Positions 45,353 through 48,037 of a stretch of DNA of 64,000 bases are shown here, piece by piece (position 1 is the stretch's first letter; every line of letters starts with the position of its first letter). This stretch comes from an uncultured Candidatus Saccharibacteria bacterium. Lineage in GTDB: Bacteria > Patescibacteriota > Minisyncoccia > Phycocordibacterales > Zambryskibacteraceae. The position numbers and the translations under genes were made by a program. The stretch spans positions 75,666 to 139,665 of the forward strand of contig CAZSOL010000001.1 in NCBI GenBank assembly GCA_964608585.1, given 5' to 3'. The notes beneath the pieces were generated by a model. The model ran no database searches. It saw nothing but the letters and a program-made list of their open reading frames with translations, and was not told the origin of the DNA.

Positions 45353-48037
45353 ATGAAGGAGTACGACCCAAAGGATATAGAAACCAAGTGGCAGGCGGAG
45401 TGGGAGAAGAGTGGAATATACAAAGCCAAAGGAAAGGGGGAGAAGTATTACTCTCTTATTGAGTTCCCGTACCCTTCTGGAGACGGGCTTCATGTAGGTC
45501 ACCCAAGGCCTTATATAGGTATGGATGTTGTCTCTAGGAAGAGGCGTATGGAGGGTTACGACGTGCTTTACCCCATAGGTTGGGACGCCTTTGGTCTTCC
45601 TACGGAGAACTATGCCCTAAAGACTGGCAAAGACCCAAGACAAGTTACTAAAGAGAATTCGGAGAACTTCAAAAGACAGATAAAGTCTCTAGGCATATCT
45701 TTTGACTGGTCTCGTGAGGTGAACACCACTGACCCCAAGTACTACAAGTGGACGCAGTGGCTCTTCCTTAAGTTTTTGGAGGAGGGCTTGGCTTATAAAG
45801 CCAAGATGCCTATCAATTGGTGCCCAAAGGACAAGATTGGTCTTGCTAATGAGGAGGTGGTGGATGGTAAGTGCGAGAGGTGTGGTACAGAGGTAGAGCT
45901 AAGAGAGCGTGAGCAGTGGATGCTCAAGATTACTGCGTACGCAGAGCGACTCCTTAAAGACTTGGACGAGGTAGACTACCCCGAGCGAGTGAAGGCTCAA
46001 CAGAGGAATTGGATAGGCAAGAGCGAGGGCGCGCTTATAAAGTTCGACGATATCGAAGTATTCACAACTCGACCCGACACCATATACGGAGCAACCTTTA
46101 TTGTTGTGTCTGGCAAAGAGGATAGATTTACTGGTAGGTATGTGACGAACCCCGCCACGAAGGAGAAGATTCCCGTCTGGGAAGCAGAGTACGTACTCTC
46201 TGACTATGGCACCGGAGCTATTATGGCTGTACCTGCGCACGATGAGAGAGACTTTGAGTTTGCTAAGAAGCACGATTTGCCTATAAAGGAAGTGGTTATC
46301 GAGAGGATGATAGATAAAAGTAATCCTCACGTAGAAGGAAAGAAAATAATTTTTAGAGACGCAATTATTGCAGCAGTTAGGAATCCTAAGGACGGCAAAT
46401 ACATTTGCTTGAAGTGGAAGAAGCAACCATGGACCACCTTTGTCATGGGAGGTATTGAGGGAGAAGAGGATCCTGTTGTTGCAGCATTGAGGGAAGTCAA
46501 AGAAGAAACTGGATATAAAAATATAAAACATATACAAACTCTAAAGGATGCACAGTCTGAGTTTTTTGCTGCACATAAGGATGTAAATAGGGTAGCTCAC
46601 ACAAGAAACTTAATCTTTGAGCTAATAGACGAAGAGCGCGAGGAAATCTCGAACGAGGAAAAGGATACCCACGAGATAGTCTGGATGTCTGTTGATGAAA
46701 TTTTGGCTACCAAGATGACCCACAGTGAGATGCCGATATTTGTGGATTGGTTTAACGGGACAAGTAACCCCTTTGTAGGTATTGGTGTGTTAATAAATTC
46801 TGGTAAGTTTGATGGCTTAGAGTCGGAAGATGCTAAGAAGAAGATTACTAAGGCGGTTAAAGGCGAGTGGGTTACAAAGTTTAAGCTTAGAGACTGGGTC
46901 TTTAGCCGTCAGAGATATTGGGGAGAGCCTATACCAGTCATCCTTTGTAAGAAGTGCGGGATAGTGCCAGTACCAGAGAGTGACCTACCTGTAGAGCTTC
47001 CAGTTGTGGAGAAGTACGAGCCGACAGAAACAGGCGACTCCCCACTAGCCAAGATTGAGAGTTGGGTCAATGTGAGATGTCCACTTTGTGGTGATAAGGC
47101 CAAGAGAGAGACAGACGTAATGCCCAACTGGGCTGGCTCCTCTTGGTACTTCATGCGCTATACAGACCCAGAGAACGATAAGGAATTCGCTTCCAAGAAG
47201 GCCTTGAAGCACTGGATGCCAGTAGACTGGTATAACGGTGGCATGGAGCACACGACTTTGCACCTCTTGTACTCAAGATTTTGGAACAAGTTCCTCTTTG
47301 ATTTGAAATTAGTGCCTACAAGCGAGCCATACAAGAAGCGCACCTCACATGGACTCATCTTGGCAGAGGGAGGAGAGAAGATGAGTAAGTCCAAAGGCAA
47401 TGTGGTGAACCCAGACGATATTGTAGATCGTTTCGGTGCGGATACCTTACGACTCTACGAGATGTTTATGGGCCCATTTGAGCAGGCTATAGCTTGGAGT
47501 GAGTCTAGTCTTGTCGGACCAAGGCGTTTTATAGAGAGGGTGTGGAAGTTGAGAGGCAAGGTTGGTGAGGTAGAACCAAGCAACTTTCTAATGCACTCCA
47601 CAATCAAGAAGGTATCAGAAGACATAGAGAGCATGGGCTTCAACACAGCCGTATCTGCCATGATGGTTTGGGCTAATGAGTTAGATAAGAGGGAGGTTGT
47701 CTCTAGTGTTGAATATGAGACCTTACTCAAGCTTCTCTCTCCTTTTGCTCCACATGTGACAGAAGAGCTTTGGGCTAACCTTGGTCACAAAGAGTCTATC
47801 CATGAGAGTGAGTGGCCAAAGTGGGAAGAGAAGTATTTGGTCCAAGACGAGGTAACTATAGCTGTACAGATAAACGGGAAGGTGAGAGGGAAACTTGTAG
47901 TTTCTAGGAATACAGAAGAAGCAGAAGTAGAGAAGTTGGCTAAGCAACTACCAAATATTCTTAAGTGGATAGAGGGTAAAGATGTGAAGAAAGTGATAGT
48001 CGTCCCTCAAAAAATAGTAAATATTGTTATCGCTTGA
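45353..48037 (+). CDS. leuS: Leucyl-tRNA synthetase with an embedded Nudix hydrolase domain and a drastically shortened CP1 editing region
   Basis: HVGH (HIGH-type) and KMSKS; LeuRS blocks [55 protein letters not shown]; Nudix box [23 protein letters not shown] at about aa 366-388. Confidence 0.9.
   Translation: [894 protein letters not shown]

Follow-up and report, generated by a model that had tools for sequence, protein, structure and literature searches.

A Nudix hydrolase domain in the CP1 editing domain of leucyl-tRNA synthetase from Patescibacteria

We analysed a 64,000-nucleotide stretch of DNA from an uncultured Candidatus Saccharibacteria bacterium (contig CAZSOL010000001.1, positions 75,666 to 139,665; hereafter the window) and found that its leuS gene encodes a leucyl-tRNA synthetase (LeuRS) with a complete Nudix hydrolase domain embedded in the CP1 editing domain. 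Few enzymes have been studied as thoroughly as the aminoacyl-tRNA synthetases (aaRSs), and domains newly gained by them have time and again brought new biology to light. Here a catalytic-looking Nudix domain occupies the editing domain of a housekeeping synthetase across much of Patescibacteria, a very large and poorly understood radiation. No paper describing a Nudix domain in LeuRS or in any other aaRS was found in the full text of the PubMed Central open-access and bioRxiv collections, subscription-only literature being outside reach. Enzyme and fold are both known; their arrangement, a widespread one, is undescribed.

A Nudix domain at the tip of the CP1 hairpin

The leuS gene (45353..48037, plus strand, as are all features of the gene given below) is a single open reading frame (ORF) for a complete bacterial-type LeuRS of 894 aa. 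In an NCBIfam scan the whole protein scored 917.4 bits with TIGR00396 (leuS_bact), against an equivalog cut-off of 548.4, and Pfam returned tRNA-synt_1, the editing domain PF13603 (150 bits), NUDIX PF00293 and Anticodon_1. The class I synthetic site is represented by the HIGH motif HVGH (aa 47-50; 45491..45502) and the KMSKS motif (aa 676-680; 47378..47392), both read from the translation, and the anticodon-binding domain (PF08264, 84 bits) lies at aa 747-858 (47591..47926). The proximal part of the CP1 editing domain (aa 228-316; 46034..46300), identified with PF13603, matches the solved LeuRS editing domains 3PZ5 and 1H3N; it contains the Thr-rich editing motif TTRPDT (aa 238-243; 46064..46081) and the editing-site motif AHDERD with its conserved Asp residues (aa 295-300; 46235..46252). 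With both synthetic and editing motifs intact, the leuS product is the housekeeping LeuRS. Neither a second LeuRS nor a second Nudix-like sequence was found within the window. Public assemblies hold a protein identical to the window LeuRS (P0004) as well as a relative of 89% identity.

The inserted module, a Nudix domain with short linkers, spans 161 residues (aa 317-477; 46301..46783) and replaces the tip of the distal CP1 beta-hairpin. It is followed by the hairpin return strand and the end of CP1 (aa 478-510; 46784..46882), which align to residues 161-192 of Aquifex aeolicus CP1. A first-pass annotation of this DNA, made by a model from the letters and their reading frames, had described a complete Nudix domain with a canonical box inside LeuRS, and this description held. 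The PF00293 envelope (aa 335-466; 46355..46750) scored 57.7 bits with an E-value of 1.6e-15, against a gathering cut-off of 21.1, and covered profile positions 3-133 of 134; scored by itself, the excised insert reached 62.8 bits. The Nudix box (aa 366-388; 46448..46516) fits GX5EX7REUXEEXGU exactly, and a family-specific motif follows it (aa 403-413; 46559..46591), consisting of an aromatic pair at +16 and +17 after the box and then K409, N412 and R413. The extent given in that annotation, 46320-46765, lies inside the delimited module but falls short of its fuller boundaries.

Conserved LeuRS blocks, including those that the annotation had quoted, flank the insert. They are 156 residues apart in the window and 10 apart in the CP1 of A. 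aeolicus (3PZ5), which bears out the claim of an insertion relative to bacterial LeuRS, and Nudix-less relatives mark out the same gap as the 3PZ5 alignment. The annotation had placed the domain in the catalytic core of the synthetase, and here it was mistaken: the Nudix domain sits in the hairpin of the editing domain, and by alignment it is a self-contained graft at the tip of the distal CP1 beta-hairpin, outside the Rossmann-fold core. A structure model, which the annotation had proposed as a check, gave a confident result. The AlphaFold2 model of aa 312-482 had a predicted local distance difference test score (pLDDT) of 91.9 and a predicted template modelling score (pTM) of 0.85, with the alpha/beta/alpha arrangement of the Nudix fold, and a model of CP1 together with the Nudix domain (aa 228-516) had a pLDDT of 95.4 and a pTM of 0.87.

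Compared with canonical bacterial LeuRS (E. coli 4AQ7/4ARC, T. thermophilus 1H3N and the A. aeolicus CP1 3PZ5), the window enzyme has the same domain order, the HIGH and KMSKS motifs, the Thr-rich motif and Asp residues of CP1 and the anticodon domain. It differs in having a Nudix domain of 156-161 aa in place of a distal CP1 hairpin loop of about 10 residues. A known LeuRS-specific insertion, such as the leucine-specific domain, was considered for this segment and ruled out, as the segment has a Nudix fold and its counterpart in canonical CP1 is just about 10 residues long.

The CP1 of the window lineage differs from canonical LeuRS at a second place, where the stretch from the Thr-rich motif to the FTGRY strand lacks a helical segment of some 40 aa that reads APEH...KTGV in relatives. 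When aligned with P0087 (alignment A3), the deletion maps to 46082-46130 of the window (aa 244-260). It is common to P0005, P0025, P0049 and P0098, and the editing motifs themselves are intact.

Conservation of the Nudix box and of the editing motifs

Residue conservation was determined over 353 distinct domains of the Nudix clade to which the insert belongs. Within the Nudix box, frequencies were 0.99 for G366, 0.84 for E372 (Q in 0.09), 0.86 for R380, 0.99 for E381, 0.97 for E384, 0.99 for E385 and 0.99 for G387. The strict box was present in 282 of 357 domains; in most of the others the first Glu is replaced by Q and the Arg by A or M. Residues specific to the clade were conserved to a similar extent (K409, 0.97; N412, 0.88; R413, 0.85; E436, 0.90; W444, 0.97), and an aromatic residue was found at +16 after the box in 0.97 of the domains (F 0.67, Y 0.30) and at +17 in 0.94 (Y 0.50, F 0.44). 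Because the metal-binding residues are conserved across the clade, we infer that the domain is a working Mg2+-dependent pyrophosphohydrolase.

The editing motifs were invariant or nearly so in 83 Nudix-bearing LeuRS proteins: TTRPDT was at least 90% conserved, and the H, D, R and D of AHDERD were invariant (alignment A5). At the level of loci, TTR[PA]DT and PAHDxRD were kept in nearly all Nudix-bearing LeuRS. As the editing motifs are kept, the Nudix domain does not replace editing; it is an extra part of an enzyme whose synthetic and editing functions are intact by motif, and no substitute for a lost editing site.

Distribution in Patescibacteria and beyond

The first-pass annotation had called for a survey of related genomes with and without the insert, and both kinds were found. 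PF00293 was detected in about 95 of the 120 best LeuRS homologues, which come from Zambryski-, Nomura-, Parcu- and Paceibacterota; the relatives without it are described below. In a genome scan with one genome per species, at least 138 of the first 600 pattern matches were confirmed as relatives, and 80 loci were kept. In about 70 of these 80 the N-terminal part of LeuRS, the Nudix domain and the C-terminal part of LeuRS are in one frame. The loci are labelled as Saccharibacteria, Paceibacterota, Berkel-, Magasanik-, Taylor-, Kaiser-, Uhr- and Gracilibacteria, and others as metagenome-assembled genomes (MAGs) of uncultured Bacilli, Clostridia and Mycoplasmatota.

When 1.84 billion cluster representatives were searched with a profile, 1904 clusters matched at E <=1e-3 and 296 at E <=1e-10, and about 110 of the best 150 cluster representatives of the Nudix clade were joined to LeuRS segments. 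These domains form a distinct Nudix clade that resides mostly inside the LeuRS of Patescibacteria and some Bacillota. A word-indexed protein search with the insert alone returned 3 matches only, a sensitivity artefact; the profile, genome and full-length searches gave the true abundance.

The annotation had regarded the architecture as undescribed. No paper found in the collections named above contradicts this, but the arrangement is neither private to the window genome nor recent: hundreds of database sequences share it, and it has been visible since about 2015 under a plain LeuRS label. UniProt A0A0G1GK41 (GenBank KKS99108.1), for example, has the LeuRS-Nudix architecture and is named simply as LeuRS. 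Other Nudix-bearing homologues are labelled 'leucyl-tRNA synthetase' or 'class I tRNA ligase family protein' in their sources, and the latter name is all that the NCBI pipeline gives to many such proteins, which is an annotation issue in itself.

In L001 (1050-3979; JGI 3300072491) the LeuRS-Nudix gene is split into at least 6 ORFs by frameshifts, with intact neighbours syntenic with those in the window, and it is either a pseudogene or the product of sequencing errors. The leuS ORF with its Nudix domain in L042 (5872-6270), a locus from Gracilibacteria, does not stay open when read with translation table 11. Gracilibacteria decode UGA as Gly (code 25), and the interruption is probably an effect of this code and no real truncation.

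Insertion sites, copy number and other hosts

Nudix domains of this clade were found at three or more sites in LeuRS: in the CP1 hairpin, as in the window, just before CP1 (after about aa 209-231) and in the C-terminal half. Up to three copies occur per LeuRS, as in the 1735-aa ORF of L012 (3193-8397) and in P0124 and P0125. The layout of these three-copy enzymes is a tandem pair before CP1 and one domain in the CP1 hairpin, all of the same clade.

The clade also has a host outside LeuRS. In archaeal-type prolyl-tRNA synthetases (ProRS; P0242 and P0274-P0277; 641-674 aa) it is located between the anticodon-binding and C-terminal domains, and the nearest Nudix-less relatives of these proteins are from Nano- and Woesearchaeota (DPANN). 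The Nudix box of P0242 lacks one residue and its Arg is replaced by Lys; that of P0277 is canonical.

In addition, free-standing CP1-Nudix proteins of about 285 aa, above both Pfam thresholds, were identified in gut MAGs of Clostridia and Bacilli (L043:5659-6546 and L044:5704-6534; also L034, L037, L049, L051, L061 and P0003). They have kept the Nudix box, whereas their editing motifs have decayed (TTRPDT to KPELIYG; AHDERD to AHIEKD or AHIQEH). Like the trans-editing proteins AlaX, YbaK/ProX and ThrRS-ed, they are autonomous copies of an aaRS editing domain. Unlike those proteins, they combine degenerate editing motifs with an intact Nudix box, and so do not look like deacylases. In L043, genes for MazG, Ham1 and two further Nudix proteins lie around the CP1-Nudix gene.

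In an all-against-all BLAST of a subset, free-standing Nudix genes of the clade were interspersed among the embedded domains, at 40-60% identity. One of them, P0148, immediately precedes a leuS that has a Nudix domain as well; the gene order there (YchF, DUF5671, Nudix, LeuRS, sigma70_r4) is syntenic with the window. Further Nudix genes of the clade beside leuS were sought in the 80 loci, and only weak (19-35 bits), non-adjacent ones were found, in four loci with an embedded leuS copy (L008, L057, L065 and L074); adjacency of the P0148 type is therefore not common. Another free-standing member is located between argS and an IleRS-like gene (L086), and a third, P0185, starts 4 nt after an Fpg/MutM gene.

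Nudix is not the only enzyme domain hosted by these synthetases. In the candidate phyla radiation (CPR), some LeuRS proteins have, besides Nudix, an alpha/beta-hydrolase (Ser_hydrolase PF06821) or a DUF559/Vsr-like endonuclease inserted inside CP1 (P0035, P0041, P0056, P0059, P0069, P0172; P0065, P0080). Among the 120 best LeuRS homologues, such inserts number 5 and 2, against about 95 for Nudix. LeuRS appears to be a hot spot for domain insertion in the CPR. The IleRS-like class I synthetase of L086 (5094-8498; tRNA-synt_1, Anticodon_1 and DUF5915) hosts a His_Phos_1 domain (107 bits, aa 523-675). Its gene adjoins the free-standing Nudix gene of the LeuRS clade and one for ArgRS, and thymidylate kinase, dUTPase and another Nudix gene lie upstream. 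The L086 protein and the proteins of NCBIfam NF040702 ('isoleucine--tRNA ligase, N-acetyltransferase domain-containing') resemble the window LeuRS in being class Ia synthetases that host an unrelated catalytic domain, and differ from it in the guest domain and in the site of insertion. We know of no characterisation of either.

History of the insertion

Relatives up to 86% identical to the window LeuRS (P0025, P0049, P0098 and about 20 others; 716-740 aa) have neither the Nudix domain nor the flanking CP1 hairpin. Because all canonical LeuRS have this hairpin, the absence of the Nudix domain from these relatives is a derived deletion. Their editing-site motif is changed to SDDERDKVFA or ADDERD (alignment A3).

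The first-pass annotation had called the insert markedly AT-richer than the flanking leuS and had taken this as an argument for a secondary insertion. The insert is indeed lower in GC (0.402, against 0.468 in the rest of leuS), as it is in GC at third codon positions (GC3; 0.41 against 0.53), and only 2.6% of same-size segments across the 64 kb are as low in GC or lower, but the gap is smaller than the 60-base samples behind that statement had implied. The argument drawn from it did not stand. GC3 of the Nudix domain was below that of the LeuRS core in 54 of 67 related loci (mean difference -0.054; Wilcoxon p 2e-7), and since the deficit is family-wide, AT-richness as a sign of recent horizontal insertion was ruled out. 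The bias reflects weaker constraint on an accessory domain and not a recent arrival.

Identities were decoupled between the core and the Nudix domain, at 81% and 45% in P0008, 75% and 35% in P0024, 53% and 66% in L002, and 57% and 66% in P0090. This suggests either module exchange between leuS genes or very uneven rates of change. Taken over the family, the insertion is old, has often been duplicated or moved within the gene, and has sometimes been lost.

Possible substrates and function of the Nudix domain

The recurrent tie of this clade to two unrelated aaRSs and to aaRS gene neighbourhoods, at multiple sites and in multiple copies, points to a link with what all aaRSs share. aaRSs are a main source of diadenosine tetraphosphate (Ap4A), and Nudix enzymes degrade it (PMC10148737). 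Our tentative guess, plausible though short of probable, is that the substrates are small adenine-nucleotide pyrophosphates of the Ap4A type. The Nudix domain would then be a third, independent hydrolytic activity on CP1, apart from leucylation and editing. It would act on Ap4A, Ap3A and related NpnN, the side products of adenylate chemistry, and cleave them to AMP and ATP or ADP, so that the synthetase would carry its own clean-up enzyme in cells with few other genes for nucleotide salvage or alarmone control.

The pairing of an adenylate-forming synthetase with a Nudix enzyme is shared with the known axis that operates in trans, where LysRS or another aaRS makes Ap4A and NUDT2, RppH or another Nudix enzyme degrades it (PMC10148737). 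The window enzyme differs in having both in one polypeptide and in its synthetase, since LeuRS is a poor producer of Ap4A, and the substrate is here a guess. Should an Ap4A-type substrate be correct, this would be the first synthetase to carry an enzyme that removes its own alarmone by-product.

Some features of the domain are in keeping with such a substrate. Among the best sequence matches in the PDB were the lupin Ap4A hydrolase 1F3Y (1e-7) and 3I7U. A Tyr 16-18 residues after the Nudix box reportedly marks asymmetric Ap4A/ApnA hydrolases, and the conserved aromatic residue after the box in this clade is compatible with the ApnA hydrolase class. Acidity of the family (median pI 5.6, with 89% of the domains net negative) would fit a small-molecule substrate better than RNA. 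The first-pass annotation had proposed aminoacyl-adenylate, Ap4A and NAD-capped or other nucleotide species as substrates; taken together, the evidence leans weakly towards a small nucleotide substrate, without finer discrimination. Searches with PADLOC (one match of 16.9 bits) and PHROGs (generic Nudix families only) returned nothing specific.

Several points weigh against the Ap4A-type proposal. LeuRS is classed as a low producer of Ap4A, at least as Goerlich 1982 is cited in PMC10148737, and a coupling to Ap4A would sooner predict fusions to LysRS, PheRS or HisRS. At the positions after the box the window domain has Phe, at both +16 and +17, and not Tyr. NCBIfam equivalog models were all far below cut-off (RppH 26 against 116 bits, MutT 16 against 98, NudE 20 against 169, NudB-like models also below). 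Identity to the nearest proteins of solved structure does not exceed 25%, and their functions vary: they include the decapping effector AvrM14 (1e-8), DIPPs, NUDT12 and ADP-ribose pyrophosphatases, and the single standout structural neighbour, 2AZW (an E. faecalis Nudix protein), is uncharacterised. Loss of the Nudix domain in relatives of 86% identity indicates that it is dispensable. Some free-standing members are found in house-cleaning or DNA-repair settings, namely the MazG, Ham1 and Nudix cluster and the Fpg gene. Finally, the rigid packing of the Nudix domain on CP1 that goes with the proposal is a prediction from the pTM of the two-domain model, a value that would imply a defined arrangement of the two domains.

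Set beside the Nudix groups with solved structures (the Ap4A hydrolase, RppH, DIPP and decapping enzymes 1F3Y, 3I7U, 4S2X and AvrM14 8DP8, and 2AZW), the clade stands apart: identity is at most 25%, no equivalog threshold is reached, and the domain is embedded in another enzyme and not free-standing. Unlike those groups, it has motifs of its own, W-K-K-x-x-W before the box and HK-x-x-NR after it.

A broader proposal would be that the Nudix domain is a third active site coupled to aaRS chemistry, which destroys Ap4A, Ap3A or adenylate-like inhibitors or processes the tRNA end, and which has been recruited repeatedly by class I LeuRS and class II ProRS in the ultra-small cells of CPR and DPANN. 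It would then represent a new kind of aaRS accessory or quality-control domain. Taken as a whole, we consider this proposal possible and rather doubtful.

Alternative explanations

The main rival to a role in aaRS chemistry is that the domain is a hitch-hiker with a house-cleaning function, a MutT-like or general sanitiser of nucleoside triphosphates or NDP-X compounds without a mechanistic tie to aminoacylation. The permissive surface loops of LeuRS, a large, essential and constitutive enzyme, would guarantee its expression in a streamlined genome. Such a role is in line with the L043 and P0185 gene settings and with the other guests of class I synthetases (the alpha/beta hydrolase and DUF559/Vsr-like nuclease in CPR LeuRS, His_Phos_1 in the IleRS-like enzyme), and also with a Nudix domain that is readily lost, evolves faster than the core and has lower GC3. 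It accounts poorly for Nudix being by far the commonest insert, for the presence of one clade at three or more LeuRS sites, in up to three copies and in ProRS as well, and for clade members that adjoin leuS and argS/ileS. In addition, the MutT models are far from their cut-offs (TIGR00586, 16.3 against 97.9 bits; NF008044, 17.5 against 148), which places the domain outside these families. We therefore regard this explanation as a possible one that is more probably wrong. If the domain is a sanitising enzyme, it would show how streamlined genomes pack housekeeping functions into essential genes; in either case the matter is directly testable with one recombinant protein and a panel of substrates.

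The Nudix domain might instead act on RNA ends, as an RppH-like or decapping-like enzyme that processes the 5' end of tRNALeu or of other RNAs (5'-ppp, NAD or Np4A caps). LeuRS with CP1 would deliver the acceptor end, which is next to the tRNA 5' end. However, the acidity of the family is unlike typical RNA-binding surfaces, the RppH models NF001934-NF001938 gave 17-26 bits against cut-offs of 116-259, so that the domain falls outside RppH, and the widely differing insertion sites in LeuRS are hard to square with one fixed geometry to the tRNA. We consider such a function unlikely.

Similarly improbable is a non-catalytic module, whether a structural brace, a surface for interaction with tRNA or protein, or a sensor of nucleotides through which LeuRS is modulated. 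Across the clade, each of the three core metal-binding Glu residues is kept in 97-99% of the domains, the window domain included, and the free-standing CP1-Nudix proteins keep the box while their editing motifs decay, so the Nudix site is the part that selection maintains.

A third proofreading or detoxifying site, hydrolysing non-cognate aminoacyl-adenylates or synthetase inhibitors that mimic adenylates, would be consistent with the exclusive tie of the clade to aaRSs that misactivate near-cognate amino acids (LeuRS and ProRS) and with its location on the editing domain. The aminoacyl-AMP linkage is, however, an acyl-phosphate, and Nudix enzymes cleave pyrophosphate; the canonical editing site is fully conserved and leaves no gap to fill; and close relatives exist without the Nudix domain. 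This explanation is very unlikely.

An artefact, whether a chimeric assembly or a LeuRS-specific insertion that matches the motif by chance, has nothing in its favour beyond the metagenome-type assembly from which the window derives, and was ruled out to a negligible residual probability by the Pfam E-value, the confident Nudix fold and the recurrence of the same in-frame architecture among database homologues and independently assembled genomes.

Genomic neighbourhood

Upstream of leuS in the window are genes for a short YchF GTPase (43584-44402; 272 aa, against 365 aa in the relative at the P0148 locus) and for a DUF5671 membrane protein (44412-45344) that ends 8 nt before leuS. Downstream are a sigma70_r4/HARE-HTH protein (48078-49115) and a DUF8128 protein (49136-50377), and the order leuS, sigma70_r4, DUF8128 is kept in L001. 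Rfam and tRNA scans detected no RNA element near leuS, where the upstream gap is 8 nt. Elsewhere in the window, two divergent tRNA-Ala genes (GGC on the minus strand and UGC on the plus strand) lie about 55 nt apart at 39560-39763, and a tRNA-Asn gene is located at 22146-22219.

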